The notes beneath the pieces were generated by a model that was not told where the DNA came from, made no database searches, and saw only the letters and a list, made by a program, of their open reading frames with translations. 64,000 nt of DNA from assembly GCA_964532415.1 (NCBI GenBank), contig CAZHHN010000001.1:11946-75945 (forward strand), written 5' to 3'. Positions 19,436 to 39,245 of the stretch are shown in pieces. Position numbers and translations under genes: made by a program. How positions within the stretch are numbered: the first letter of the stretch is position 1; each line of letters begins with the position of its first letter. The stretch is from an uncultured Gammaproteobacteria bacterium (GTDB taxonomy: Bacteria > Patescibacteriota > Patescibacteriia > SG8-24 > DYFX01).

Positions 19436-19440
19436 TTGTT

Positions 19441-20649
19441 ATGCGTTATCGCTATACCGCCACGACCGCCAAAGGCCGGATGGAATCGGGTTCGATCGAA
19501 GCGCCGTCAGCCGAGGCGGCGGCCGACCAGATTCGCGCTTCGGGGCTGTTGATCGTCTCGCTCCGCCGTGAAGGCGGAGGACTCGGCGGACTCTTTGCGC
19601 GCTTCGAATGGGTCACGCCCGAAACCAAAGTCGCCTTCGCCAAGCACCTGTCGCTCATGATCCGGGCCGGCTTGCCGGTCGACGAAGCCTTGCGCGCGCT
19701 GGTCGACCAGGCGCAGGGACGCTTCCGGCGCGACTTGACCGCGGTGCACAATGCGGTCGAATCCGGCCGTCCGCTTTGGGAAGGCTTCGCCGGGCGGCCC
19801 GGCACATTTTCCGAACTGACCGTGGCCGCCGTGCGCGCGGGCGAGGCGAGCGGCACACTCGGGGAGAACCTCGACGGCCTGGCTCTACAGATGACGAAAA
19901 ATTACGAACTCGTCCGAAAGATCCGCGGCGCCATGCTCTATCCGATCGTGGTGCTGACGGCGGCGCTGGGCGTCGGCATTGGCCTTTCGACGTTCGTATT
20001 GCCGAGAATCATCGAACTGTTCAAATCGATCACCGTCCAGCTGCCGCTCATGACGCGCATCCTGCTGGCTTTCTCGAATTTCATGGTGACCTATGGGACG
20101 CAGGCGCTGCTGTGTGCCCTGGCGGCGGTCGCAGGCCTCATCGTGCTCCTGCGCTCGAAGCCGGTCCGGCCGCTGGCCGACGCGGCGCTTCTCCGGTTTC
20201 CGGTGTTCGGGACGCTCGCCCGAAATTACAGCCTGGCGATGTGCGCCCGGACGATGGCCACGCTTTTGGCCTCCGGCATGCCGATCGGCGACGCGCTCCA
20301 GGTCGCGGCCGATGGCCTGCAGAACCGCTCCTTCCGGACCGCCCTGCTGCGCGTGAAAGCCGGAACCGAACGCGGCATGCCGGCCTCGACGCTGCTTGAA
20401 GACGAGCCGCGGCTTTTCCCCTCGGTGGCTTCCCGGATGATCGCCGTCGGCGAGCGCACCGGCAAGCTTGAAGAGACCTTCGGCTATCTGGCGGAGTTTT
20501 ACGAAGACGAGGTCGATGTCATGACCAAGAACCTCTCGACGCTGCTCGAGCCGCTTCTGCTGCTCGTCATCGGCCTGGTCGTCGCCTTCATCGCCGTTTC
20601 GATCATCTCGCCGATCTACAACTTTATCGGCAATATCCAGCGCCTCTGA
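19441..20649 (+). CDS. pilC: Type IV pilus platform protein PilC / GspF family
   Basis: Two repeated GspF domains with 3-4 TM helices. ATG at 19441 is just after the pilB stop (the ORF-track start at 19432 is TTG). Confidence 0.85.
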   Translation: MRYRYTATTAKGRMESGSIEAPSAEAAADQIRASGLLIVSLRREGGGLGGLFARFEWVTPETKVAFAKHLSLMIRAGLPVDEALRALVDQAQGRFRRDLTAVHNAVESGRPLWEGFAGRPGTFSELTVAAVRAGEASGTLGENLDGLALQMTKNYELVRKIRGAMLYPIVVLTAALGVGIGLSTFVLPRIIELFKSITVQLPLMTRILLAFSNFMVTYGTQALLCALAAVAGLIVLLRSKPVRPLADAALLRFPVFGTLARNYSLAMCARTMATLLASGMPIGDALQVAADGLQNRSFRTALLRVKAGTERGMPASTLLEDEPRLFPSVASRMIAVGERTGKLEETFGYLAEFYEDEVDVMTKNLSTLLEPLLLLVIGLVVAFIAVSIISPIYNFIGNIQRL

Positions 20650-20653
20650 ACGC

Positions 20654-21121
20654 ATGCGCCGCGGCTTCACCATCCTCGAACTGCTGCTGACCGTCGGCCT
20701 GCTGTCGCTCACCGCCGCGGCCGTTTTCCTTCCGCTCTCGGCGCTCCAGGGCCGGAGCGGGCTGCAGAGTGGAACGGCCGGACTGCTGAACGTCTTCCGC
20801 CGGGCGCAAGCGCAGGCGCTTGCGGGTTACTTCGCCGATTCGTGGGGCATCCATCTTTCGGACGCGGACGGTTGCGCGCTGCCGGCCTCGCAGTACCATC
20901 TGTTCCGGGGTAGCGCGTTCACCAGCGCGACCGACACGATCGAGACGTTCAGCCTGCCGAATGCCGTAGCGGTGACGGCGCTCGCGATCGGTGGCGGCTG
21001 CGACGTGAAGTTCAGCCGCTACGGAGGATCGACGACGTCGACCGGCACGGTCACGCTGACCGGACCGTACGGCGCGACCACGCTCACCATCAACGGCTAT
21101 GGTCGGATCACGCAACCATAA
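20654..21121 (+). CDS. Pseudopilin / minor pilin with class III (prepilin) signal
   Basis: MRRGFTILELLLTVGLLSL carries the prepilin cleavage/methylation motif G|FTxxE. Confidence 0.8.
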   Translation: MRRGFTILELLLTVGLLSLTAAAVFLPLSALQGRSGLQSGTAGLLNVFRRAQAQALAGYFADSWGIHLSDADGCALPASQYHLFRGSAFTSATDTIETFSLPNAVAVTALAIGGGCDVKFSRYGGSTTSTGTVTLTGPYGATTLTINGYGRITQP

Positions 21122-24100
21122 GCCGGCAGGCGGCCAATCGACGATCGAAGTGCTGATCGCCGTCGGCACTTTCGCGCTGCTCGCGGCCGGACTGCTTCAG
21201 CTGGTTGCCAGCCCCCTGACGCTCGCCGGAGATTCGGCCAACCGTTTCAAAGCGTCAACCTTCGCCGACCAGGGCGTCGAGGCGGCGCGCGCCGTGAAGG
21301 AATCCGGCTGGACCCACCTCTCGACCGGCACGCACGGGCTGGCACGCTCCGGCGGCACCTGGTCGTTCAGCGGCTTTTCGGACGTGCCCGATACCGGCTT
21401 CGTGCGGTCGGTCGTCGTGGCGGACGTGGCGCGCGACGTGGGCGGCGCGATCGTGACGGGCGGCGGCACCGTCGATCCGCGCACGAAGAGCGTCACCGTC
21501 ACCGTCAGCTGGACCTTCGGCGTGGTCGCTTTGCCGCGCAGCGTCACCCGCTCCGTCTATCTCACCGACTGGAACGTCTACGATTGGACGCAGACGACCG
21601 ACGCCGACTTCTCGGCCGGCAGCAGGAGCGGCCTGACGATTTCCGGCACCGGGAGCGCTGCTCAGGTCGAACTCTCGCCGGCCAATAAAAGCTGGACATC
21701 CGGCGGCGGAACGCTCGTGGTGCATACGACCGACGCCGACTGGAACGGCGGCTCCTACGGCACCAACACGCAGGAAACCGGGACCGGCAGCACCGCTTCG
21801 GTGACCGAGCTCGGCGCATCGGCCTGGAGCGGCGTCAGCCAGGCCAAAACCTGGAACGAAACGACCGACACGGATTTCTCCGACGGCACCTTTTCGCAGA
21901 CGGCGGTCGTGGATACCGGCGACCTGGCCGGCGTCGGGTTGAACACGCAAATCGACTGGGCACCGCAGACCAGCCCCACCACCAATGACATGTACACGCT
22001 CGGAGCCGTGAGCGCCAACGACGTCTGGGCGGTCGGCAGCGCCGGAACGATCGCACATTGGAACGGCTCCGCCTGGAGCGCCGTCAGCAGTCCGACATCC
22101 CAGGGGTTGCACGACGTCGACTGCCTGACCGCGGCCAACTGCTGGGCGGTGGCCGATGCCGGACAGATCATCCGCTGGAATGGCACGAGCTGGACGAATT
22201 TCGTCGACACGGGCGCCGAAGTCTACAACGGCGTGACGATGACGTCGACAACGGACGGCTGGGCAGTGGCCGGCGGCACGAGCGGCACGGCCCGCGGCCG
22301 CATTTTCCGTTGGAACGGCACGGCTTGGTCGCAATTCGTCGACCTCGGCAGCCAGAATCTCAGTTCGATCGACTGCACCGGCACGTCGGACTGCTGGGCT
22401 TCGGCCGATTCCGGGCAGATCTTCCATTGGAACGGCACGGCCTGGTCGCAATTCGTCGACACCGGATCGGAGACCTGGAATGACCTGAATATGGTTTCGC
22501 CGACCGATGGCTGGATCGTCGGCGAAGGCGGCGCCATGCGGCGTTTCAATGGCACCAGCTGGAACACCGTCTCAAGCGGAGTCACCGGTTCCCTGGGCGA
22601 TGTCGAATGCGTTTCTTCCACCTACTGCCTGGTCGTCAGCGACGGCACGCCCCGGGTCTGGAACGGCACGGGCTGGTCGGCGATGAGCTTCGTGTCGGGC
22701 GTGACGCTCTACGGCCTGGCGGTCATTTCGTCGGGGAGTTCCTTCGGCATCGGCGCCGGCGGTGCCTTCGTCAATTACGGTACGCATTATTTCCCGAACG
22801 GAACGTACCTCTCCGGCATTTTCGATGCGGGCTCCGCGCAAACCTGGGGCACCGCCAGTTGGGACGCGGTGCTGGTTTCGGCGACGGGAGTGACGATCGC
22901 CACCCGGAGCGCTTCGACGCCGGCCGGTATCGGCTCGGCGGCCTGGAGCGCGGAGATGGCCGTTTCCGGTTCGGCGATCACGAGCGCCGCCAATCGTTAT
23001 CTCCAATACCGCATCACCCTGGCGACCCCGAATCGGAGCGCGACGCCGCGCCTGAACGCGATCACGATCAGCTACGCGGCGCCGGCGGTCGCCGATTACG
23101 AAGATCTCTACATGGCGGCCGACAACGACGGCTGGAGCTTCGGCAGCGGCGGCGCGATCGCGCGCTGGGACGGGACGGGCTGGAGCAAATTTTCTTCGCC
23201 GACGGTGAATCTGCTCGAGGCGGCGGCCGGGACGGCCTCGACCGACGTCTGGGCGATGGGCGCATCCGGGACGATCGTGCACTGGAACGGGACGGCTTGG
23301 TCGGTGATCGTGAGCGGCACCGCGCAGGCGCTGCACGGCGCGGCTTGTCTGACCTCGGGCAATTGCCGGACCGTCGGCGCTTCGGGAACGATCCTGCGCT
23401 GGAATGGCACGGCCTGGTCGGCCGAGGCCGATCCTTCAACGCAGGGTCTTGAAGCCGTCGGCTATACGGCGGCCAACGACGTTTGGGCCGTCGGCGGTAC
23501 CGACATCGTCCGTTTCAATGGCGCTTCATGGTCGGTCCATACGACGGTGGCCGGCGCCGCCTTTCACGGTCTTTGGATGGTCTCGGCCACTGACGGCTGG
23601 ACCGTCGGAGGCGGCGGTGCGATCCGGCGGTGGAACGGCACGGCTTGGTCAACGGTGACCAGCCCGACGACGAATGCGCTTCGGGATGTCCACTGCGCGA
23701 GCGCGTCGGACTGCTGGGCGGTCGGCGACGCCGGGACGATCATCCATTGGAACGGCACGGCTTGGTCGACGGCGGCCAGTCCGACCGGGCAGGCGATCGA
23801 AGCGGTCTTCATGAGTGGCGGGACGCACGGCTGGGCGGTCGCTCACGCCACGACCTTCCTGGAATACCGTACGGTCTATCCGGGCGGGGCGGCCTGGACC
23901 AGCCCGATCATCGACGGCGGCGCTGCCGGCACGACCTGGAACAGCGTGGCCTGGGATCAATCGCTGCCGCTCGGCACCGGCATCACGATCGCCAGCCGCT
24001 CGGGGCCGAATCCAACCTGCTGTACCGGCTGGTCTTCGTACAGCGCGGAGTACGCGTCGCCGGGCGGCTCTCCGGTCACGAGCCCGGCCAACCGTTATTT

Positions 24101-25280
24101 CCAGTATCGGACCACATTTACGACCGCCAACACCGTCTCGACCGGCGTTCTGCAGGAAGTGCGGATCCTGCGCGGCGCCGCAACCGCTCAGCCGCTCTAC
24201 GGCATTCAGGGCACGGCGGCGAGCGACGTCTGGGCCGTCGGCGAAGCCGGCACGATCCTGCGGTATGACGGTGCATCGTGGTCGGCGACCAACAGTCCGG
24301 TCACGACCGTGCTGCACGGCCTGGATGCGCTGACGTCGGCAAACGCGATCGCCGTCGGATACGGAGGCGTGATCCTGAAGATGAATGGTTCCGCCTGGAG
24401 CGCGATGAGCAGTCCGACCAACGAAGAGCTGTATGCGGTCGATCTGTTGGACGCGACGCATGGTTGGGCGGTCGGCACGGGCGGAGCGATCGTCAGTTAT
24501 AACGGGACGACGTGGTCGACGATCGCCAGCGGCACGGGCAGTCCGCTCTACGGCGTCTCGATGGTTTCCGCTTCGAACGGGTTCGCCGTCGGCGGCGGCG
24601 GCACCATCCGCAGATGGAACGGCACGAGCTGGTCGACGTCGGCGAGTCCGACTATCGACAATCTGAACGACGTATTCTGCCTGAATGCGTCGCTCTGCTG
24701 GGCGGTGGGGGACAACGGGCGCATCCTCAGTTGGAACGGCACGGTCTGGTCAGTGACGACGAGTCCGGTCGCGTCGCGGCTCAATGCCGTCGAAGCGCGC
24801 TCCGGCGGCGAAGTCTGGGCGGTCGGCGACTTCGGCACGATCCTGAAGTACGATGGCGTCTCCTGGGCCAGCTACGTTTCGCCGACGACGCGCGATCTGT
24901 ATTCCGTGGCCGTGTCGGCTCCGACCGACGGCTGGATCAGCGGGAATGCGGGGGAGTTGATCAAAGATCCGATCGCCTACGTCGGAACGGGCACGCTCTT
25001 CTCTTCGGTGCTCGACACCGACAGCGCCACTTCCACGTTTCAGACGGCCTTTTGGAATGCGATCACTCCGGCCAACACGGCGCTGCGCGTCTCGGCCCGG
25101 AACGGCAATACGTCTTCGCCCGACGGCAGCTGGTCGGGCTGGGGGCCGTATTTTTCCTCCGCCACCGGTTCGCCGATCGCCCTGCCGTCGGCGCGCTACC
25201 TTCAGTATCAGCTGACGCTTTCGACCAGCGACACGTCGATGACGCCATCCGTGCAGGACCTCACCATGACCTATGAATGA
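21099..25280 (+). CDS. Giant (1393 aa) pilin-like protein: prepilin-type N-terminus followed by three modules of WNGTxWS beta-propeller-like repeats
   Basis: N-terminus GGQSTIEVLIAVGTFALLAAGLL is a prepilin-like signal with a hydrophobic helix. There are >20 copies of a ~40-aa unit [GTI.(H/R)WNGT.WS...SPT...L..V.C.....CWAVGD.G]. Each of the three blocks ends with a conserved NRYLQYR(I/T)T..T segment. Confidence 0.7.
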   Translation: MVGSRNHKPAGGQSTIEVLIAVGTFALLAAGLLQLVASPLTLAGDSANRFKASTFADQGVEAARAVKESGWTHLSTGTHGLARSGGTWSFSGFSDVPDTGFVRSVVVADVARDVGGAIVTGGGTVDPRTKSVTVTVSWTFGVVALPRSVTRSVYLTDWNVYDWTQTTDADFSAGSRSGLTISGTGSAAQVELSPANKSWTSGGGTLVVHTTDADWNGGSYGTNTQETGTGSTASVTELGASAWSGVSQAKTWNETTDTDFSDGTFSQTAVVDTGDLAGVGLNTQIDWAPQTSPTTNDMYTLGAVSANDVWAVGSAGTIAHWNGSAWSAVSSPTSQGLHDVDCLTAANCWAVADAGQIIRWNGTSWTNFVDTGAEVYNGVTMTSTTDGWAVAGGTSGTARGRIFRWNGTAWSQFVDLGSQNLSSIDCTGTSDCWASADSGQIFHWNGTAWSQFVDTGSETWNDLNMVSPTDGWIVGEGGAMRRFNGTSWNTVSSGVTGSLGDVECVSSTYCLVVSDGTPRVWNGTGWSAMSFVSGVTLYGLAVISSGSSFGIGAGGAFVNYGTHYFPNGTYLSGIFDAGSAQTWGTASWDAVLVSATGVTIATRSASTPAGIGSAAWSAEMAVSGSAITSAANRYLQYRITLATPNRSATPRLNAITISYAAPAVADYEDLYMAADNDGWSFGSGGAIARWDGTGWSKFSSPTVNLLEAAAGTASTDVWAMGASGTIVHWNGTAWSVIVSGTAQALHGAACLTSGNCRTVGASGTILRWNGTAWSAEADPSTQGLEAVGYTAANDVWAVGGTDIVRFNGASWSVHTTVAGAAFHGLWMVSATDGWTVGGGGAIRRWNGTAWSTVTSPTTNALRDVHCASASDCWAVGDAGTIIHWNGTAWSTAASPTGQAIEAVFMSGGTHGWAVAHATTFLEYRTVYPGGAAWTSPIIDGGAAGTTWNSVAWDQSLPLGTGITIASRSGPNPTCCTGWSSYSAEYASPGGSPVTSPANRYFQYRTTFTTANTVSTGVLQEVRILRGAATAQPLYGIQGTAASDVWAVGEAGTILRYDGASWSATNSPVTTVLHGLDALTSANAIAVGYGGVILKMNGSAWSAMSSPTNEELYAVDLLDATHGWAVGTGGAIVSYNGTTWSTIASGTGSPLYGVSMVSASNGFAVGGGGTIRRWNGTSWSTSASPTIDNLNDVFCLNASLCWAVGDNGRILSWNGTVWSVTTSPVASRLNAVEARSGGEVWAVGDFGTILKYDGVSWASYVSPTTRDLYSVAVSAPTDGWISGNAGELIKDPIAYVGTGTLFSSVLDTDSATSTFQTAFWNAITPANTALRVSARNGNTSSPDGSWSGWGPYFSSATGSPIALPSARYLQYQLTLSTSDTSMTPSVQDLTMTYE

Positions 25281-25794
25281 TCCGCACCGAACGCGACCCG
25301 GTTTCACGCTCGTCGACTTCATCCTGTATTTCGGGCTGATCGGTCTCTTTCTGACGGGCGTCATCGCCTTCGCGGTCGACTACACCAAGAGCTACAATAA
25401 GGCGCTCATCATTTCCCGCGTCGGGCAGGAGAGCCGTTTCGGGCTTCAGCGCATTCTGCGGACGGTTCGGCAGGCGGCCAAAATCAACGCCGCCTCGGTC
25501 TTTGACGATGATATGGGCACGCTCGCGCTCGACACGGTTGCAACCTCGACCACGCCGACCGTTTTCGACGTGTCCGGAGGCGCGCTGCGGATCAGGGAAG
25601 GCTCCGCCACCGCGACGCCGCTTACCTCCGGCGAGGTGGTCGTGCAGAAATTGCGCTTCAGCAAAGACGCGCCGATCGGCAACACGACCGCCGTCACGGT
25701 CGAGCTGACGGTGTCCTATGTGGGTCCTTTTGCCGACAAGCTGCTCTCTTACAGCCTTTCCGCCAGCGGCACGGCCGTGGTGCGCCGGGATTGA
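25273..25794 (+). CDS. Pseudopilin / minor pilin
   Basis: RPGFTLVDFILYFGLIGLFLTGVIAF is a prepilin-type N-terminus. ATGA overlap with the preceding gene. Confidence 0.75.
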   Translation: MNDPHRTRPGFTLVDFILYFGLIGLFLTGVIAFAVDYTKSYNKALIISRVGQESRFGLQRILRTVRQAAKINAASVFDDDMGTLALDTVATSTTPTVFDVSGGALRIREGSATATPLTSGEVVVQKLRFSKDAPIGNTTAVTVELTVSYVGPFADKLLSYSLSASGTAVVRRD

Positions 25795-25795
25795 T

Positions 25796-26200
25796 ATGCG
25801 CCATCCCCCCAAGGGTTTCATCGCGATGGTCACGGTCCTGGTGCTGATGGCGGTGCTCCTGGCCGCCGGATTGGTCGGGGCGGCGATCGGACGCGACGAG
25901 CTGCTGCTCTCCGGTATCGTGGAAGACGGCAACCAGGCGTTTTCCGTCGCCGATGGCTGCCTCGAAGACGCCGTCAATCGCTTCAAACAAAACGGCGGCT
26001 ACGCCGGCGGCAGTTATGCGCTCTCCGGCGGAAGCTGCGTGGTGACGGTCGTCAATCCCGGCGGCAACACCCGGCTGGTGTCGGCCACGGCGACCTACGC
26101 CAACAACAGCCGCGCCATCGATGCCAACGTCACGCTGAAATTCAACGCGGCGGGCAACGCCAAAACCGTCATCGTCAATTCGTGGCTGGAATCCAATTGA
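25796..26200 (+). CDS. Small minor pilin (PilX-like N-terminus)
   Basis: KGFIAMVTVLVLMAVLLAAGLVGA is a pilin-like hydrophobic N-terminus. TGATATG junction. Confidence 0.6.
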   Translation: MRHPPKGFIAMVTVLVLMAVLLAAGLVGAAIGRDELLLSGIVEDGNQAFSVADGCLEDAVNRFKQNGGYAGGSYALSGGSCVVTVVNPGGNTRLVSATATYANNSRAIDANVTLKFNAAGNAKTVIVNSWLESN

Positions 26201-26227
26201 GGCTCTGGTGTACGATGGACGCACATT

Positions 26228-30260: not shown

Positions 30261-33200
30261 ATGCCACTGCGCACCTCCCGGCGCTCCGTTCCGTACCTGC
30301 TCTGGTCGATAATGGTAATTTTCTTCGCAGCCCGGGCCTCGTTCGCGGCCGTATCGGAACCCGCAGCGGATCAAACCGGGGTCGATCATACGGTGGCGGA
30401 GGCTTCTCAAGCCGGTGGTGCGAGCGCTGCATCGGATGGCGATCGTACCGCTGCACAGCCGGTTACACAGCCCGCGTCCGCCTCATCGGGCAATGCTCCA
30501 CCGGATGCGCTGACGACCTACCGGAACGGGCCCGCACGGACCGTCGAACCGAACGTCGAAGAGTCGACCGGCGCGTTGCGCTATACGGTTCCGATTTCCG
30601 TCCCGCCCGGCCGGAATGGCCTGCAGCCGGATCTGAAGCTCGAATACAACAGCCAGCGGAACGATCAGAACAATCTGGTCGGATACGGCTGGGCGCTGAA
30701 CATTCCCACGGTCGGTCGCCTCAATCGATACGGCGTCGAGAAGCTGTACACCAATCCTGTCTTCAGCTCCGACATGGACGGAGAGTTGGTCCAGACCGCG
30801 ACCGGCACCTACGCCGCCAAGGTCGAGCAGGGCAGCTTCAACGCATACGCCTATTCCTCCGCCAGCAATTCCTGGATCGTGACCGACAAGCTCGGCAAGA
30901 TCTACAAGTTCGGCACGACGGCCGCTTCGCGCCTGGACAACGCCACCACCACGGCGGCGTTCCGCTGGTATCTCGACGAGATCCGGGACACGAACGACAA
31001 CTACGTCAAATACGAGTATGCGAAGTCCCAAGGTCAGGTCTATCCATACCGCATCACGTATACCGGACACGCAGCGACGGACGGACCTTTTACGGTCACC
31101 TTCGCGCTCGCTTCCAGATCCGATGTTTCAACGACCTATGAGGCGGGTTTCGGCGTGACAACGGCTTCGCGCATTTCGGAAATCGACGTGGCGATCGGCG
31201 GCGTCCTGACGCGCAAATATGTTCCTGGATACACGGCTGGTACGAACGGTTCGCGTTCGCTTCTCGCCTCCGTCACCGAAACCGGATATGACGAATCCTC
31301 GAACCCGACGACGCTTCCCGCGATGCAGTTCGGTTACCAGTCCGCCACGAATTCGCCCGGCTGGACTAAAACGACCGATCCCGGTTTCAACACGGTGGCG
31401 AACGGTTTCGATTGGGGGAAGGTCCTGATCGATATCAACGGCGACGGCTTGGTCGACGAGGTCAGCGGCCTGTGCATTTATTGCAGCGCCACGACGAGCG
31501 ACGTCTTCCTCAACTCCGGACAGAACACCTGGGTCCTGAATCCCTCATGGCAGATTCCGCTGCCGACGGCCTACTATACCTGCAACTGCGCTCCGCCTGC
31601 CGATTCTGGCCTCAGATTCGTGGACGTGAACGGCGACGGTCTGGTCGACCTGCTGCTCAGCACGCTCTCCGAGAACCAAGACGGTACGGAGACGTACACG
31701 CAGATCGCGTATCTCAACACGGGCTTCGGCTGGGCCCAATCAACGGTCTGGGCGCCGGGCGTACCGTTTCTGATCTGGGACGCGAACGGCGACCCTCACG
31801 ACAACTCGGTCCGCTTCGCCGACCTGAACGGCGACGGTCTGGTCGACATGAGCGTGAGCGGTACCGGCTATGACCTTCAACGCAACGCCGGGAATTACTA
31901 CAACAATGGCGCGGGCTGGACGAAAAACGGCACTGCACCGTTCAGCTACTCGGACGGCAGATACGACAAAGGCACCCGGATCGTCGACGTGAACGGCGAC
32001 GGCCTGGTCGACATGGTCACGGGCTGTGCGAGCAGCGGCTACACGGGCACGAGCAGCGTGTACCTCAACGACGGAGCGGGTCACTGGCTTCGCGATGCCG
32101 GCTGGGATTTGCCGGTATCGACGTGCACCAATGACGGCCAAATCGGCATGTCTCAGGATGCGGGCACGCGCTTCATGGACGTGAATAACGATGGCTTGGT
32201 CGACGCCGTTCAATACATGCTTCAGGATGACCAGAATCAGACGCCGCATGTGTACACTGCCTACAAGGACGCCTACATCAACACCGGTCACGGTTGGGCT
32301 GAGGCGAGCGGCTGGTCGCCGCCCGGTTCCTTCATATTTTATTCTTATGCTACTCCCGTGGCCAAATATTACGATGTCGGTACCAGGATCGCCGACTTCG
32401 ACGGCGACGGCAAGGATGACATCCTGAGAGACAGCGAAGCATACGATTATCCCTACGCAGATCAGGGCATCTATCACAGCCGCTCCGCCCCCGAGCTCCT
32501 CACCTCCGCCACCACCACGCAGGGCGGCGCGTACCGATGGTCATATCAGGCCACGCCGACGTACCGGGACGGTTCAGGCCTCCTGAACTCCGTGCTACCC
32601 TCCGCGCTCCAAGTCGTCGCGACCGAGGCGAGAGACAACGGCTTCGGCGCGGTCGAAACGTCGACCTTCTCGTACCAGGGCGGCAAGTATCGCTATGCCA
32701 GCGCGTATGACCGCACATTCTCCGGCTTTGCCAAGTCTGTGGCGACCGACGCGACCGGAGCAAGCATTACGACCTACTATCACCAAGGCGACGCCTCGGC
32801 GACCGGGACGGGCGAGTACCTTGACTCCTTCCACAAGATCGGCAGGCGCTACCGTGAAGAAACCCGGGATGCCTCCGGAAATCTCTTCAGCGTGGCGATC
32901 AACAAGTGGGACCAGACAGATTTGGGCAACGGCCGTGCCTTCGTGCAACTCGCCCGTGAGACGCGAAAGGATTATGACGGTAGCGGCACGCACCGCGACG
33001 CGGCCGTCGAATACGGGTACGATAGCCGCGGCAATCTGACAAGCGCCACGAACAGCGGGGAAGTGACGGCCGGCGATGACGGTGCGTTCACGGACATCGG
33101 CTCCGACAAGACCGTCACGGCCAGCAGTTATGCCGCCTCCGGTCCGGCGGGCCTCAAGACCCGCGAGCTCGTGACCGACCAGAGCGGCGCAACCGTGAGC

Positions 33201-36200
33201 GACACCAAGCAGTACTACGACACCCTCTCCTTCGGCAGCGCCACCAAAGGCAATCTCACCAAGACGGAGCGCTGGAAGTCCGGATCGCTCTACGTGAATG
33301 CGCAAAAGGCTTACGACAGTTACGGGCTGGTTACTTCCGACACCGACCCGCGCGGCAAGGTCACCTCGTATGGCTACGACGCCGCCAAGCTTTACCCGGC
33401 GACCGTCACGAGTCCGCTGAGTCTCGTTAGCCAGTATCAGTACGACTATTCGGCCGGCAAGCCGAAACAGGCCACCGATCCGAATCTGCTCGTCACGCAG
33501 ACCGTCTTCGACGGACTCGACCGCGTGACGGCCGAGAAGCAGCCCGACCAGTCGACAAGCTCGACCCTCGTTACGAGAGCGGCCTTCGCGTACACCGATG
33601 CGCTCCTCGGGAGTGTCGTGCGGGAGACCGACTACCTGAACAGCGCCAGTTCCGTCGACGCCTACACCTACTTCGACGGCTTCGGCCGTCCGGTGCAGAG
33701 CCGGAAAGCGGTCGAGGCCGCGAACACGTACGCCACGAGCGACACCGCCTACGACGCCCGCGAGCTCGTCGCTAAGACGTCCTTACCGTATTTCTCGACG
33801 GGATCGGCGCGCACCTCGCCGACGACCGATGCCACGCTTTACACGACCTACGTTTACGATGCTCTGAAGCGTCCCATCTCCGTCGCCAACGCCGTGGGCA
33901 CGACCTCGTCCGCGTATGACAAATGGAAGACGACCGTCACCGACCCGCGCGGGAGCGTCAAGAGCCTGTTTCATGACGCCTACGGCCGCTTGAACCGCGT
34001 CGAGGAAGTCCTGAACGCCACCAACACCTTCGTGACGGCCTATGCCTACGACGGTGGCGGAAACCTGACCGGCATCACGGACGCCTCGGGCAACGTCCGC
34101 AGCTTCACGTACGATGGCCTCGGCCGCCGGCTCACGGCCCAGGATCTCCACGCGCCCGCCGACGGCACGTTCGGTACCTGGACGTACACGTATGATGACG
34201 CCGGCAACCGCACGAGCGTGCTGAGTCCCAAGAACCTGACGGTCAACTACGTCTTCGACGATCTGAACCGTCCGATCAGCGAAGACTACACCTCCACGAG
34301 CGGCACCGACGCGACCTATGCGTACGACAGCTGCCAATACGGCAAAGGCCATGTCTGTTCGGCCGTGAACGCGGGCGGAGCCGTCAGCTTCCTGTATGGC
34401 CCGACCGGGCAGCCGACGCGTGAAACGAAGACGATCCTGGGAACTGCCTTCCAGACCGACAAAACCTACGACCGCCAGGGGAACGTCGTCACCATGACCT
34501 ACCCGGATGCTTCCCAGGTCCAGTACCTGCGCGGTGCCGGCGGCCGGATCGACAAGGTCCAGCGCAAGGAGTCCGGCGGCGCTTGGGCCGATGTGGTTTC
34601 GAACCTCGATTATTCCTCGGTCGACAAGCCGACGCTCTTGGCATTCGGAAACGGTACGACCGCGACCAACACCTACGACGCCGCCAAGCTCTACCACCTG
34701 ACGAATCGGCAGACCACGATTCCCGGCGGTGCGAAGCTGCAAGACATCGCATATACCTACGATCCCGGCGGCAACCTGACGAGGATCACCGATGCCGGAG
34801 TCACAACGAACGCCCACGCCAGCGACTACGCCTATGACGCCCTGAACCGCCTGACCTCGGCCAGTACGACTGCCGCGACCGGCGGAGGACTGCAAACCTT
34901 CGCCTATGACCCGATCGGCAACCTGACCTTCCGGACCGGTGCCGGTAGCTATGCCTACTCCGGCGCCGGCAACGCCAACCCGCATGCCGCCACCTCCATC
35001 GGCAGCCTCCTGCTCTCGTACGACTCGAACGGCGACTTGAAGACAAAAGGAACTTCCAATTTCACCTGGAACTACCTTGACCAACTGGCTTCCGCCTTCG
35101 TGAACGGCGCCACCTCCACCTTCGCCTACGACTGGAACGGCGTCCGCACCCGCATGACTGCTGGTACGGTCGTCACCCTGTATGCCGGCGACCACTATTC
35201 GCTGTCCGGCGGCAAGGCCACCAAGCATCTTTTCGCCGACGGAACGCTCCTCGCCACCGTCGAGGGTTCCACCTCCACGGCCGTCGTCCGCTACGAACAT
35301 ACCGACCATCTGACCGGCGCCTCGGTCGTCACCTCCGCGACCGGTACGCTCGTCGAGAACCTCGACTACCAGCCTTGGGGCAACCTGCGCGTCGACAATC
35401 AACCGGCAGGCTTCTCCGAAGTGAGGAAGTTTGCGGGGCAGGAGTATGACGTGGGGACAGGATTGTCCTATATGGGTGCGAGGTACTATGACGCCGGGGT
35501 CGGAAGGTTCCTTAGCCAAGACCCAGCATTTTTGGCTGTAGGCGACCCCAATGCTCTCAAGAACAAGACTGGTGTCACCGTGGAGAAATATCTGTCTGAC
35601 CCACAAGGCCTCAATAGCTATAGCTACGCACGGAACAATCCAATCGTTAATATTGATCCGGACGGCAACTTCTGGTGGTATGGATTCTACAATTGGCAAG
35701 GTTACTCAGGTCTACATGGCTTAATAATGAAAGCGGGCGAGGTTTTGGGTGGCCACGAAAGAGGCATGAACGCAATCCAACGGAATCAATCGACAGTCAG
35801 TTCTGCTACCAGTAAATATGGTGTGAGTCCACAGTTAGTCAATTCGATTATCTATGAAGAGCAGTCACACCTTCTGCCTACAGAAACGGCTAAGGACTAC
35901 CTTTTCCCTGATAGTCGATTGGGAGGGTATGATGGAGGCGTTGGCATGATGCAGGTCAGTGGAGGTGTAGGCAAGGAATTCGGCGACTACACCAAAACTG
36001 ATCTAGCAAGGGATCCAGCCAAGAACATCGATGCCGGCACGCAATACTTGTCCAGTATCATGGGCAAGGAAAATACGAATGACCCCGCTATAGTTGGCAC
36101 GAAGTACAACGGGTCATCTGAATACGGACAACGTATTAACGCTCAGATTCAGAACCCCAACTACAACACAAACGTCTTTGTTGACGGGGCTCAGAAAATG

Positions 36201-36237: not shown

Positions 36238-36579
36238 ATGGAAATCAGTCGCTCAACGAAGAAGCTGTCATTGTGGACCGTGCTTCTCGGTGTATTGCCA
36301 TTTGTGATTTATGCCGTTGAACGTGCCCTTGGGAAACTGCCGTCTGCAACTGATTGGTACAAGGGCGGTACCAATCATGGTCCTTGGCGATGGGAGCTCG
36401 AAGGTTTCACGATACTTTATCCAGTTATGATTCTGGCGGTGATAACTGCTATCAAGTCGATTGCCGAAGGGCAGGAAAGAAAAAAGTGGCAACCAGTTCT
36501 GATCGGTGGGGGGCTGATCGTGCTTCAAGCCGTCATCCTGTATGCCCAGTTAGTGGTACTTAATTGGACGGTGAATTGA
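36238..36579 (+). CDS. Small 3-TM membrane protein, putative immunity protein for the RHS C-terminal toxin
   Basis: Starts 1 nt after the RHS stop (TAGTATG). Three hydrophobic helices. Low GC like the toxin tip. Confidence 0.5.
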   Translation: MEISRSTKKLSLWTVLLGVLPFVIYAVERALGKLPSATDWYKGGTNHGPWRWELEGFTILYPVMILAVITAIKSIAEGQERKKWQPVLIGGGLIVLQAVILYAQLVVLNWTVN

Positions 36580-36598
36580 ATCACCAACGAGCCTACCT

Positions 36599-36853
36599 AT
36601 GAACACGGCTTCAAATGAAGAACTGGTGAAGACTGTGGGTGCGGTCGTTATTGGTACGCCTAGCGGCCTTAAGGCGCAGGAGGCGCAAGCGGAATTAAAT
36701 AGGAGGTTGATTGAGAAAATGGAGGCGCTCGTGACCAGTCTCGACAAGAATAATGAGACTACAGAACGGTTCAATCGCCGAACGCTTCAATTGACTTGGG
36801 CGATGGCGGTACTTGCTGTCGTGCAAATTGTGATTCCGTTCCTGCGCAATTGA
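36599..36853 (+). CDS. Small hypothetical protein with C-terminal TM helix
   Basis: 84-aa ORF in the low-GC cassette. Hydrophobic tail TWAMAVLAVVQIVIPFL. Confidence 0.35.
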   Translation: MNTASNEELVKTVGAVVIGTPSGLKAQEAQAELNRRLIEKMEALVTSLDKNNETTERFNRRTLQLTWAMAVLAVVQIVIPFLRN

Positions 36854-36955
36854 TGCGCGTGGATCCGCGACTATCGCGTGGTTCTTCTTCCATGCTCCGA
36901 CGTAGGGGTTTAGGAAAGGCATCGTAGGCTGATTGGTTAAAGCAAAGAAGAGAGT

Positions 36956-38149
36956 ATGCTGGACAAGCGACTAGAAGATGTTGCGGTCGGGGACATTCAA
37001 GCGTTGGTGGAGAACAGTGTCCTCGAAAGAAAGACATTAGAGTACAAGTCAGAACTTCCCGAGAAAATAGACGACAGTAAAAGGGAGTTTTTGAAGGATG
37101 TTTCTTCCTTCGCGAACACTCTCGGAGGCGACTTGATATACGGTGTTCGAGAAGATGAGGGAATTTTAGATCCTAAAATCGGCTTGGTCGCGATAGACGC
37201 CGACGCGGAGATAGCGAGGTTGGAAAACATTATCCGCGACGGGATCTCCCCGAGAATTTCTGTGGAGATACGACCGATTCAATGGGAAGACAAAACTGTG
37301 TTGGTGCTGCGGATACGGGCCAGCCTGCAAGCGCCACATCGGGTCGTCTTTGGCGGGCACGACAAGTTTTACAAGCGGAACAGCAACGGAAAGTATCCAA
37401 TGGATGTGGGCGAGCTGCGGGTCGCCTTCTTGCAGTCAGGCGAGATTGTGGAACGTATCCGGCGGTTCCGGGAAGTACGGATTTCGGATATACAAGCGGA
37501 TGAGGCACCGCTACCCGTGATGTCGACAGATAGGTTTATCGGGATTCACATCATTCCTCTGTCCGCATTCAATGCCACGCAACGCTTGTCGCCACGAGTC
37601 ATCGAGGATATGAACGATGGCAAGGAGAGTCTGTTCACGCCGTTTCCGAATGTTCGCGGCTACAGCCACCACATCAATCTGGAGGGTGTAGTCCTCTACA
37701 CACCCAATCAGGAAAAAGGGTCGTGGCACTATACGCAGCTGTATCGTGACGGAAAAATCGAAGTATATGACAGTGTGAAGCTGACTGGGGCGGCGGGGTC
37801 ACAAAACAAGACGATTGCTATGTATGATTTGGAGGTATCGACGCTGGCTTATGTAGATAAGATGCGAAAGATGCTCGATAAGCTTGGCTTTGACCCGCCC
37901 TATTATGTGTTTGTTTCCTTGGTTGGAGTGCACGGCCTGACGGTGCATGTGCCATTTGGCACATTCGAACGCCCCGTGCCGATCAGGCAGAAGGACTTGC
38001 TGTTGCCAGAAGTGCTGTTGGAAAAATCCGAGGATGATCTCGCTCAGAAATTGAAGCCTGTGTTCGATATGGTTTGGAACGCGGCCGGTATCAGCGAGTC
38101 GCCAAATTTCACAGAGCAAGCTCCTTCGGTAGAACAAGTTGCTGGTTAG
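36956..38149 (+). CDS. AlbA_2 (Schlafen-like divergent AAA / putative DNA-binding) domain protein
   Basis: N-terminal ...ERKTLEYKSELPEKIDDSKREFLKDVSSFANTLGGDLIYGV... matches the AlbA_2 signature (ExK...L...aaFaNt.GG.L.iGV). 397 aa, low GC. Confidence 0.65.
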   Translation: MLDKRLEDVAVGDIQALVENSVLERKTLEYKSELPEKIDDSKREFLKDVSSFANTLGGDLIYGVREDEGILDPKIGLVAIDADAEIARLENIIRDGISPRISVEIRPIQWEDKTVLVLRIRASLQAPHRVVFGGHDKFYKRNSNGKYPMDVGELRVAFLQSGEIVERIRRFREVRISDIQADEAPLPVMSTDRFIGIHIIPLSAFNATQRLSPRVIEDMNDGKESLFTPFPNVRGYSHHINLEGVVLYTPNQEKGSWHYTQLYRDGKIEVYDSVKLTGAAGSQNKTIAMYDLEVSTLAYVDKMRKMLDKLGFDPPYYVFVSLVGVHGLTVHVPFGTFERPVPIRQKDLLLPEVLLEKSEDDLAQKLKPVFDMVWNAAGISESPNFTEQAPSVEQVAG

Positions 38150-38314
38150 GGTGGGCTCGCGGATTACTTGTTGGATTTTCTTCCGTGCCCGCGCTGGGGT
38201 TTAGGAAAGGTGTCGTTACAACCGTCTATCCGCCGTTCTGCTTCATTACCCTACCTAGAGCGCCTGTTGGTAACCAAAAAGCGTCGATTAACTCCCGCTG
38301 TACGCCCAAGCCCC

Positions 38315-38794
38315 ATGCTCACCAGTCAAGCTCGGCGTGTCGTCCTGGATACGAGCGTCGTCATCTCCGGGATCCACGCCAAGGAGAACGACCATGAGGA
38401 ATCGAACTTGCTGCTGATCCTGCGGTGGTTCGAGGCCGGACATTTCTTGCTTGAATCCAACGCCAAGATACTCGATGAGTACCGCCGCAAGATGCGCGAG
38501 AAGCTGCAAGATGGTTTCCTGAAAAAGCCGGAGGTGGTCGGGATCTATTTCAATATGTTTCAGGACAAGGCGCTGTTCGATCGGCTTCTCGTTACTCCTC
38601 CGATTTACATTCCGGCTGATCCCACCGACAACATCTACTTCGCCAGCAACAACTGCCTCACCGCAGACTACTTGGTTACGTCGAACACCAAACACTTCAC
38701 TTCGGAGATCCAGCAGGATCTAGTACAGCTTGGGAGCAAACTGAGAATCGTCACGCCGGCAGAGTTCGTGGCAGCAGTCAGGCAGGAGAATTGA
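38315..38794 (+). CDS. PIN-domain nuclease (TA-toxin-like PIN family)
   Basis: RVVLDTSVVISGI at the N-terminus (first acidic PIN residue). ...YLVTSNTKHF near the C-terminus (third/fourth acidic region). About 160 aa. The ORF-track start at 38168 is probably too early. Confidence 0.65.
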   Translation: MLTSQARRVVLDTSVVISGIHAKENDHEESNLLLILRWFEAGHFLLESNAKILDEYRRKMREKLQDGFLKKPEVVGIYFNMFQDKALFDRLLVTPPIYIPADPTDNIYFASNNCLTADYLVTSNTKHFTSEIQQDLVQLGSKLRIVTPAEFVAAVRQEN

Positions 38795-38833
38795 TGGCTG
38801 GCATCATGGGACGCAGCTCGAGCTTTAAGATGA

Positions 38834-39034
38834 CGTGATGCCTATGCGGCGTCCAGGCGAACTGTCGACAACTCACTGGAAGCCGGAGCGGGTGTCGGCC
38901 AGCGCACTTTTGCGGGGCATGAGTATGACGTGGGCACGAATCTCAGCTACATGGGAGCCCGCTATTACGACCCGGCGATCGGAAGGTTCCTATCGGAAGA
39001 CCCGATGTTCTTGGCTGTCGGTACCGGATGCTGA
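38834..39034 (+). pseudogene. Start-less orphan fragment of an RHS core / C-terminal junction (displaced ancestral RHS tip)
   Basis: In-frame translation ...TFAGHEYDVGTNLSYMGARYYDPAIGRFLSEDPMFLAVGTGC* parallels FAGQEYDVGTGLSYMGARYYDAGVGRFLSQDPAFLAVGD at 35431-35560 of the intact RHS gene. There is no ATG between the upstream in-frame stop (38831) and the fragment. High GC like the host. Confidence 0.7.
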
Positions 39035-39076
39035 CTCTTGCCAACCCGCTTTTCGTCATGTAGGATGGCCACGTTC

Positions 39077-39151
39077 CGGAATGTAGCTCAGCGGTAGAGC
39101 GCTCGCTTCGGGTGCGAGAGGTCGCAGGTTCAATCCCTGTCATTCCGACCA
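39077..39151 (+). tRNA. tRNA-Pro (anticodon CGG)
   Basis: Acceptor CGGAATG/CATTCCG, D-arm GCTC-AGCGGTA-GAGC, anticodon stem CTCGC/GCGAG with loop TTCGGGT, T-loop TTCAATC, encoded CCA. Confidence 0.8.
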
Positions 39152-39245
39152 TGGAAGGTCCCCGTTACGCGCGGGGATTTTCCTTTTCCGGGCCGTCCAC
39201 CCCTTGGCTTGACCCGTTCGCCTTACGTTCGTGTAGGATGGAAGC

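Follow-up and report, generated by a model that had tools for sequence, protein, structure and literature searches.

A TcdB/TcaC-type RHS toxin locus of a high-GC Patescibacterium with a probably imported, low-GC tip block

How does a toxin gene whose body has the codon usage of a GC-rich genome come to end in markedly AT-richer sequence, and against which cells would its product be directed? The question is posed by a gene at 30261-36236, and by the DNA that follows it up to a tRNA-Pro gene, in a 64,000-nucleotide stretch of assembly GCA_964532415.1 (contig CAZHHN010000001.1, positions 11,946 to 75,945; referred to here as the window, with positions counted from its first nucleotide). An earlier note, made from the letters of this DNA, had seen in it a Tc-toxin-like RHS protein with a swapped C-terminus. 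The locus is quite probably a TcdB/TcaC-type polymorphic RHS toxin system of a high-GC bacterium of the Candidate Phyla Radiation (CPR) that carries an imported low-GC tip block, and the tip is predicted to be a peptidoglycan-cleaving enzyme.

The gene, a TcB/TcC-fusion-type RHS polymorphic toxin gene on the plus strand, is an open reading frame (ORF) translated without interruption into 1991 residues, one fewer than the 1992 first counted; the architecture described for it stands in Pfam, NCBIfam and fold comparisons. All above the Pfam gathering score, the protein matches SpvB (55 bits), FG-GAP_3 (46), TcdB_toxin_midN (65), RHS_repeat (100) and SLT, and the plain FG-GAP family is matched as well; hidden Markov models of the three modules singled out by the earlier note (RHS core, SpvB and FG-GAP) each score above cut-off, and the end of the core quoted there, YARNNPIVNIDPDGN, is found in the translation. 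The first codons (30261-30356, plus strand) encode a predicted Sec signal peptide, MPLRTSRRSVPYLLWSIMVIFFAARASFA followed by AV, in which a basic n-region precedes a hydrophobic stretch at residues 10-32 on the Kyte-Doolittle scale. Its cleavage site was placed by eye rather than by a dedicated predictor, and the N-terminus is consistent with export by Sec. There follows a TcB-like N-terminal module (30522-32960, plus strand), delimited by Pfam, repeats and a structural model, which comprises SpvB, a six-repeat FG-GAP/VCBS propeller (repeats of the type DVNGDGLVD at 31410-32420), TcdB mid-N and the first part of the cocoon. The RHS/YD-repeat shell of host-like composition (32961-35366, plus strand) scores 100.5 bits with PF05593 and 63.9 bits with TIGR01643, and its sequence matches in the Protein Data Bank (PDB) are the Rhs cocoons 7q97 and 8h8a and TccC2 (6l7i_G).

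An AlphaFold model of residues 88-900, built with 41 homologues, reaches a predicted local distance difference test score (pLDDT) of 89 and a predicted TM-score (pTM) of 0.89. Foldseek matches it to TcdB1 (6l7i_F), TcdB2 (6h6e_F and 4o9x) and YenB (4igl_A) with E-values of 6e-36 to 2e-31 and query TM-scores (TMq) of 0.67-0.72, against a TMq of only about 0.2 for Rhs structures of type VI secretion systems (T6SS). The designation as a Tc BC-fusion-like RHS polymorphic toxin is therefore valid at the level of the fold as well as in Pfam, because TcB structures superpose whereas T6SS Rhs proteins reach only about 0.2. The novelty that had been implied for such a protein does not hold: a class combining a signal peptide, SpvB, a propeller and RHS repeats with a polymorphic toxin, termed TcdB/TcaC-type, is described in Zhang et al. 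2012 (PMC3482391), and TcC proteins are recognised polymorphic toxins, with natural B-C fusions on record (Song et al. 2021, PMC7861908). The window protein has all the traits of that class: a signal peptide (by hydropathy), SpvB, a propeller, RHS repeats and a toxin.

The shell leads into the Rhs-associated core, an autoprotease plug (35367-35669, plus strand), which TIGR03696 of NCBIfam recognises with 68.5 bits against a cut-off of 32.5 over residues 1703-1802 (nt 35367-35666). Motif reading and a family alignment point to two predicted catalytic aspartates, D1754 (in SQDP) and D1799 (in NNPIVNIDPDGN). The roles of these residues and of the PxxxxDxxG motif in TcC/Rhs autoproteolysis are those given in PMC7861908, and the former were also taken from the names of the mutants in PDB entries 6h6f and 8uxt. 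Cleavage is predicted after N1803, in which case the freed tip would start at F1804 (nt 35670). An N stands in place of the usual L after the G of the cleavage motif, and the family alignment shows an insertion of 20-25 residues between the two aspartates, as in other CPR cores.

The C-terminal toxin proper (35670-36233, plus strand) comprises 188 residues and is assigned by Pfam, PDB and Foldseek comparisons as an SLT/Tse3-like peptidoglycan lytic transglycosylase or muramidase. The Pfam SLT family (PF01464) is matched with 33 bits against a cut-off of 21.3, and 18 homologues keep the motifs YEEQS (E1866/E1867), GVGMMQV and YNGS with little or no variation; these take the places of the catalytic Glu-Ser motif, the GLMQ-like motif and the AYNxG-like motif of family-1 lytic transglycosylases and goose-type lysozymes. 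The best sequence match in the PDB is Tse3 (E 0.0055, about 19% identity), with the catalytic AEQ/EEQ region aligned, and the top Foldseek matches of the tip model are Tse3, MltE, MltC, Slt and g-type lysozyme (probability 1.0, E 0.015-0.1). Sequence and predicted fold thus agree on a lysozyme-superfamily enzyme that would cleave peptidoglycan, and its target would therefore be bacterial rather than a eukaryotic protein. Both the predicted identity of the toxin and its bacterial target had been missed before.

The composition of the locus changes within the core. In 300-nt windows the GC content drops from 0.62-0.65 to 0.44-0.56 over the stretch from about 35450 to about 38850, and a maximum-likelihood change point in the GC content of third codon positions (GC3) lies at 35457, with a 2-lnL support interval of 35385-35523, a GC3 of 0.83 before and 0.53 after it, and a log-likelihood gain of 46. 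This breakpoint separates a host-like body from an apparently imported low-GC block, inside the core-coding sequence. The gene body (30261-35396) has a GC3 of 0.80, compared with 0.76-0.86 for host genes; after the break GC3 is 0.59 for the distal two-thirds of the core, 0.51 for the toxin, 0.50 for orf124, 0.57 for orf84, 0.60 for the AlbA_2 gene and 0.675 for the PIN gene, the last four being the genes downstream of the toxin. The sliding-window GC profile is accordingly not uniform over 35-39 kb, and the abrupt drop that the earlier note placed at the conserved junction, with its persistence to about 38830, is seen in both measures: the C-terminal module and the genes after it are compositionally foreign, with the break inside the conserved core-coding junction. 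The plasmid and phage DNA collections searched with the low-GC block returned no DNA match, and an origin in a plasmid or phage was rejected on that ground.

Relatives of the incoming part are found as spare parts in other CPR genomes. A search with the core and toxin as one module gave 137 proteins, of which the 16 best are ORFs of 162-464 aa with 40-62% identity, most of them covering more than 90% of the query; the top match is from Candidatus Vogelbacteria. The Vogelbacteria RHS array (locus L157) has the homologue as an orphan cassette; a gene for a 1968-aa SpvB-FG-GAP-TcdB_midN-RHS protein that ends in Ntox44 lies 3.6 kb upstream, with another orphan between the two. At a second locus (L161) the homologue comes after a 1613-aa SpvB-RHS gene and before a further orphan, and a third (L163) has it in an array together with a SIR2/STAND gene and a cassette whose tip is VanY/Peptidase_M15. 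These loci have a GC content of 36-43%, and the genomes of the nearest homologues one of 36-44%. The related CPR loci L157, L161, L163 and L029 contain complete orphan cassettes. The occurrence of this tip solely as short orphans may be biased, as the protein lists contained nothing above about 1400 aa, not even the window's own 1991-aa protein, and may under-represent very long proteins; it rests mainly on the three inspected contexts L157, L161 and L163. Homologues of the incoming cassette thus sit as orphans behind the SpvB-RHS genes of low-GC CPR genomes, and the window gene therefore carries in full-length form a warhead that other CPR genomes keep spare, which is what the cassette-exchange model predicts (PMC2935791, PMC3482391). 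The pool is diverse: 23 CPR RHS tips are mutually unrelated, with a mean column identity of 13%, and include Ntox44, Peptidase_M15, LysM and hydrolase domains. In the closest complete relative of the host (CP129476.1) a stand-alone 420-aa ORF with Rhs core and tip (P0052, L169:10001-11263) has no full-length RHS gene upstream, and a Y1 transposase gene lies 2.5 kb downstream of it.

On the sequence evidence the host is a Patescibacterium, a tiny symbiotic bacterium, and the earlier note had not recognised it as such. Its genome has 62% GC; the MgsA encoded beside the locus matches P0121, encoded on an 82.9-kb NCBI contig, at 100% and has many relatives at 80-86% identity that are named Patescibacteria by their source, and the nearest RHS homologues, at 42-56% identity, belong to Paceibacterota, Saccharibacteria, Parcubacteria, Doudnabacteria and similar groups. 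Four relatives with MgsA identities of 80-82% served for comparison: L164 (CP129476.1, complete, 1.17 Mb), L165, L167 and L168. All four have the order exonuclease, a minus-strand membrane-protein ORF of about 130 aa, tRNA-Pro(CGG), MgsA, TSP3 and PBP, and none has an RHS gene between exonuclease and MgsA. DNA homology to them ends at the stop codon of the exonuclease (30126) and resumes at 39057 by blastn, or at 39037 by eye, in the tRNA-Pro promoter block. As four syntenic relatives are free of RHS genes and homology stops at the edges, the RHS locus at 30127-39036 is a lineage-specific island as a whole, a status that had also gone unnoticed.

The left edge of the island (30127-30260, plus strand), set by the end of homology, comprises the terminator hairpin of the exonuclease (30139-30164, AAAACCCCGGGAATACCGGGGTTTTT) and the RHS leader. 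At the right edge (39037-39151, plus strand) ARAGORN, Rfam, a promoter scan and conservation define a promoter-like element, TTGCCA-17-TAGGAT at 39038-39066, and the tRNA-Pro(CGG) gene at 39077-39151; the block CTTGCCAA...ATGTAGGAT...CACGTTC is common to the window, L164, L165 and L167. Promoter and terminator scans gave counts no higher than the shuffled expectation, and this promoter-like site is the only one backed by conservation. A motif like that of the tRNA-Pro promoter, GTGTAGGATGG, precedes MgsA (39229-39241) and may be the -10 consensus of the clade. Rfam and ARAGORN detected no RNA genes other than tRNA in the island region. The small hydrophobic-protein ORF of the relatives (L164:9322-9723, L165:9336-9722, L167:8781-9188 and L168:8969-9355, all on the minus strand) is absent from the window, where the island stands in its place; L167 and L168 have extra, unrelated small ORFs between exonuclease and tRNA-Pro, and the site seems to be a variable spot. 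Integration at tRNA-Pro as a tRNA-targeted island was considered and rejected: no integrase domain is found in the island ORFs, no direct repeat flanks the island, and it lies on the promoter side of the tRNA gene.

The explanation that best fits these observations runs as follows. The low-GC block begins in the first third of the core-coding sequence (about 35400-35520) and runs to about 38830; it would have come from a lower-GC relative and been joined to the resident gene by recombination inside the conserved junction of the core, following the C-terminal displacement model that Jackson et al. 2009 put forward. The RHS protein would be exported by Sec, its cocoon enclosing the tip until the aspartyl autoprotease of the core frees it after DPDGN. 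The tip would then cleave the peptidoglycan of neighbouring cells, either rival CPR cells or the producer's own host bacterium, whose wall would be reachable from outside if it had no outer membrane. The product of orf124, translated right after the toxin, would protect the producer, and the 201-nt core fragment at the right island edge would be the leftover of another core copy.

The candidate immunity protein, the product of orf124 (36205-36579, plus strand), is a small membrane protein with three hydrophobic segments according to hydropathy and its homologue family. As first called, the ORF overlaps the RHS stop codon, and homologues align only from about residue 20; the likely true start is the ATG at 36238, 2 nt past the RHS stop, giving about 113 aa. 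The family is conserved: 121 representative clusters align end to end with residues of about 20-123, and for 46 the E-value is at most 1e-10. Nearly all members have 100-125 aa, and the loop motif NHGPWRW is common to all three members read. One homologue, P0375, is encoded at L157:8954-9289, among the orphans of the Vogelbacteria RHS array; the homologous SLT cassette lies 0.7 kb downstream of it. It is somewhat probable, judging from sequence and position, that the orf124 product is the immunity protein of the toxin, and an exposed loop on a membrane protein would fit a toxin whose action lies outside the membrane. As a separate observation, the P0375 gene is convergent with a Glyco_hydro_25 (GH25 muramidase) gene on the opposite strand, with an overlap of about 10 nt (L157:8954-9971), which makes a second link between the orf124 family and cell-wall hydrolases.

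Several findings weigh against this explanation. In L157 and L160 the homologous toxin is followed by a conserved partner (161 and 129 aa, 50% identical to each other) to which the orf124 product shows no homology by BLAST, this partner family is absent from the window, and the orf124 homologue in L157 is not directly adjacent to the SLT cassette; the case for an immunity role is circumstantial for these reasons. The toxin model matches solved folds only modestly (Foldseek E 0.015, TMq 0.37), and its pLDDT is 74 overall and high in the toxin part only. GC3 climbs along the low-GC block, from 0.51 in the toxin through 0.60 in the AlbA_2 gene to 0.675 in the PIN gene, so that the block may not be one import. 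To our knowledge, there is no delivery partner for TcA-less BC proteins. Finally, the locus is missing from close relatives, which leaves the ancestral tip and the direction and date of the exchange unobserved; a scan of genome and metagenome contigs with the shell found no relative above 56% identity and hence no same-locus allele with an alternative tip for comparison. The swap can therefore not be dated, and the adjective 'recently' in the original description has to be dropped.

The part of the explanation most open to revision concerns the second core copy next to tRNA-Pro, a dead Rhs core fragment of about 66 codons (38834-39034, plus strand; translation and BLAST) reading ...RTVDN...FAGHEYDVGTNLSYMGARYYDPAIGRFLSEDPMFLAVGTGC up to its stop. 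Position 38909 onward translates to FAGHEYDVGTNLSYMGARYYDPAIGRFLSEDPMFLAVGTGC, with a terminal TGA at 39032-39034 that abuts the conserved tRNA-Pro promoter, a neighbourhood the earlier note had missed, and an in-frame stop lies at 38831-38833. A second junction copy at 38909-39034, with no start codon and a premature stop, is thus present as quoted in the earlier note, and the alignment of the two copies proposed there gives significant similarity: 31/39 residues and 82/117 nt are identical over 38909-39025, with BLASTP E 3e-23 for the pair and tblastn E 9e-18 against the window. A 26-nt block (35430-35455 versus 38909-38934) is identical at 25/26 positions, and the longest exact matches are 11 and 14 nt. 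The copies are old homologues rather than a fresh duplication, since third positions match at only 20/39. The designation 'high-GC copy' holds only in relative terms: the fragment, at GC 0.60, lies above the insert, yet its GC3 of 0.66 (n=67) falls between insert and host, 3.5 standard deviations below host genes and 1.6 above the insert, and is not clearly host-like. Nor is it a 'retained orphan tip'. It consists of the first half of a core, ends eight residues past the first catalytic Asp, the only one it keeps, and has no tip, no start codon, no DPxG motif and no toxin or immunity gene; the window holds no orphan core-plus-tip cassette, only this tip-less 66-codon piece, which is a non-functional vestige of another core copy.

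Whose core it was bears on how far the claim of C-terminal displacement by an incoming cassette holds. Acquisition of the cassette is supported by the foreign GC3 and the orphan homologues; the fragment itself may be the displaced resident core or a passenger. That the fragment is instead the start of the next cassette from the donor's orphan array, or an older vestige, and no displaced resident tip, is a serious possibility that falls somewhat short of being probable. Its GC3 is close to that of the adjacent PIN gene (0.675) and well below that of host genes; its part upstream of the junction, RRTVDNSLEAGAGVGQRT, differs strongly from the resident NLRVDNQPAGFSEVRK; and in L157 two orphan cassettes share 35/39 residues here and only 23-24/39 with the main gene, next to 31/39 for the two copies in the window. 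Against such an origin, the total GC of the fragment (0.60, and 0.65 in the 75 nt upstream of the junction) exceeds that of every insert gene, and the two copies start to be homologous at GTCGACAA (35390/38861), a point inside the breakpoint's support interval, where simple displacement would put it; in any case 67 codons are too few for a decision. Whichever origin holds, the mechanism as a whole would be unchanged and only its history would differ, and a deletion or an illegitimate join made the right edge. A single crossover of a circular intermediate in the 26-nt block was also considered and is not favoured, as it predicts donor-like GC upstream of the second copy, where the 75 nt have 0.65, though so short a stretch is not decisive. 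No RHS core remnants were found beside tRNA-Pro in the relatives.

Between orf124 and the fragment lie three further genes. A gene for a small protein with a C-terminal hydrophobic anchor (orf84, 36599-36853, plus strand; hydropathy, no family match) has no homologue in the fetched RHS loci, and BLAST against the genes that follow homologous toxins was also blank. It is followed by genes for a 397-aa Schlafen/AlbA_2-domain protein (36956-38149, plus strand; PF04326, 67.7 bits) and a PIN_3-domain protein (38168-38794, plus strand, first Met at 38315; PF13470, 29.5 bits, and a weak TIGR00305 match). Both are probably passengers, and a role as a defence system was rejected, as neither has a PADLOC match. 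A tentative alternative, unlikely on balance, is that the low-GC block is composite: the toxin/immunity cassette, at 35.4-36.9 kb, and the AlbA_2-PIN pair, at 36.95-38.8 kb, would be separate gains, and the pair a small insertion of defence or toxin-antitoxin type into a hot spot of recombination. A composite origin would account for the difference in GC3 between toxin (0.51) and PIN gene (0.675; z about 3.3), for the weak terminator-like hairpin after orf84 (36865-36881), and for the lack of AlbA_2 or PIN homologues in any fetched RHS locus, and an unrelated SIR2/STAND gene sits between cassettes in the L163 array. It has to contend with the fact that the composition does not return to that of the host between the two parts, that no mobile-element genes or repeats separate them, and that PADLOC does not match the pair. 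Defence- or toxin-antitoxin-like genes lie between RHS cassettes in two unrelated CPR loci, SIR2 with a STAND NTPase in one (L163:3636-5699) and AlbA_2 with PIN in the other (36956-38794), and RHS arrays may act as sinks for such genes.

The remaining alternatives leave the imported block, as proposed above, in a much stronger position. An assembly artefact, in which the assembler jumped between organisms at the conserved RHS core, has to be considered for a contig of the metagenome-assembled genome type, since RHS cores are conserved repeats common to co-occurring CPR genomes; it is very unlikely. Host-like sequence flanks the low-GC block on both sides, so that an artefact would require two false joins, the junction copies match exactly over stretches of 11 and 14 nt at most, less than assembler k-mers, and the frame runs unbroken through the junction into a complete core with both aspartates. 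It is highly improbable that the protein is the BC component of a genuine ABC (Tc) complex directed against eukaryotic cells, with TcA encoded elsewhere in the genome. The TcB-like fold includes the propeller, which in Photorhabdus and Yersinia is the part docking onto TcA, and natural B-C fusions exist (PMC7861908); the tip, however, is of the peptidoglycan-cleaving type with Tse3 as its nearest solved relative, no TcA-type Pfam family is found in the scanned ORFs of 21-43 kb, the only other ORF above 1000 aa in the window is the 1393-aa ORF of a pilus cluster, the RHS protein has its own predicted Sec signal peptide, and the host belongs to a small-genome clade (closest complete relative 1.17 Mb). 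That there was no transfer at all, the low GC of the tip reflecting amino-acid composition or relaxed selection in a fast-evolving resident part, is scarcely credible, for although variable RHS tips are typically more AT-rich than cores in many bacteria (see PMC2935791), the fall in GC is greatest at synonymous third positions (0.83 to 0.53), sets in within the conserved core, spans four further genes and intergenic DNA, and the nearest homologues reside in genomes of 36-44% GC.

How does the locus compare with known systems? It shares with the TcdB/TcaC-type class (PMC3482391, Table 1) the combination of SpvB, an integrin-like beta-propeller, RHS and a variable toxin, as well as recombination with stand-alone cassettes. 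The survey of Zhang et al. 2012 predates CPR genomes and does not list Patescibacteria; the text covered names lysozyme once and transglycosylase nowhere, and gives no lytic transglycosylase tip for the class. With the Tc BC proteins TcdB2-TccC3, TcdB1-TccC2 and YenB-YenC (4o9x, 6l7i, 4igl) the window protein has in common the SpvB/propeller/cocoon fold, two catalytic aspartates in the core, the PxxxxDxxG motif and an encapsulated hypervariable tip. It differs from them in that B and C form one polypeptide with its own Sec signal, an immunity-like gene follows the toxin, and the tip is of a peptidoglycan-lytic type, whereas Tc BC tips modify actin or Rho. None of the larger ORFs flanking the gene encodes a TcA (VRP1, TcA_TcB_BD, neuraminidase-like), and the 64-kb window contains no ORF of TcA size.

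The closest precedent for the exchange itself is the C-terminal displacement, with arrays of dissociated tips, of enterobacterial rhs genes (Jackson et al. 2009, PMC2935791). Like the window gene, these have a GC-rich body and an AT-richer tip with the junction in the core, core-bearing remnants downstream, and tips that are apparently shared laterally (see also Poole et al. 2011, PMC3150448); unlike them, the window has a remnant devoid of tip and immunity gene, a TcB-like rather than a PAAR/VgrG-linked N-terminus, and a CPR host. Tse3, a T6SS muramidase effector of Pseudomonas aeruginosa, resembles the window tip as an interbacterial, peptidoglycan-targeting toxin with cognate immunity (Tsi3). 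Delivery here would rely on an RHS cocoon and Sec rather than the T6SS, and the candidate immunity protein, with three transmembrane segments, is unrelated to Tsi3. Delivery of the window protein as a T6SS Rhs effector was considered and rejected in view of its N-terminus (signal peptide plus SpvB), the TMq of about 0.2 with T6SS Rhs structures, and the type IV pilus-like character of the neighbouring genes. WapA-type RHS/YD toxins of Gram-positive bacteria, which are cells without an outer membrane, are exported by Sec, use no dedicated injection machine, and have polymorphic tips with immunity genes downstream (see PMC12704120). The window gene likewise encodes a Sec-exported (by prediction) RHS toxin with a polymorphic tip and a downstream immunity candidate. 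WapA is devoid of the SpvB/propeller TcB-like module, and the tips known for it are nucleases. A soil Saccharibacterium has been mentioned as having an RHS toxin with an immunity gene (PMC6031116), and in the literature covered, which was incomplete, no paper was found on SpvB-RHS arrays or lytic-transglycosylase tips in Patescibacteria.

Upstream of the island lies a type IV pilus-like cluster (17735-29492) encoding PilB/T2SSE, PilC/T2SSF, a 1393-aa protein with only a weak CBM_5_12 match, and a 694-aa PilM fusion; its gene order is kept in L167. Two tandem pseudopilin genes at 28376-28942 and 28962-29492 encode proteins with 58% identity and are 83% identical in nucleotide sequence over 201 nt at their 5' ends. 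Among the homologues of the SpvB/propeller/TcdB_midN part of the RHS protein, P0311, P0313 and P0337 bear the source names Candidatus Micrarchaeota, Woesearchaeota and Methanosarcina, and the TcB-like module therefore occurs also in archaea, including DPANN episymbionts.

The mechanism outlined here is textbook for polymorphic toxins, and the locus therefore changes no concept. What it provides is a clean and well-delimited example from the Patescibacteria, with defined island edges, a break in codon usage inside the Rhs core, and a donor-type cassette found as an orphan in other CPR genomes. It indicates that toxin tips pass between CPR bacteria of widely different base composition, and that in some of them a Tc-like cocoon is armed with a predicted peptidoglycan-cleaving enzyme though no TcA injector is evident. 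The toxin and orf124 make a small toxin-immunity candidate pair, and the delivery route of TcA-less BC proteins could bear on how epibionts breach the envelopes of their hosts. A bolder idea, which we regard as rather improbable, is that TcA-less TcB/TcC-fusion cocoons are a general surface weapon of ultra-small episymbionts, opening the host wall during attachment or feeding in a role beyond kin conflict. If this were true, wall-lytic tips (SLT, Peptidase_M15/VanY, CHAP, LysM-linked) and others would circulate as cassettes among CPR classes of 36-62% GC, and the presence of the N-terminal module in DPANN-named proteins (Micrarchaeota, Woesearchaeota) suggests convergent or shared use by both episymbiont radiations.

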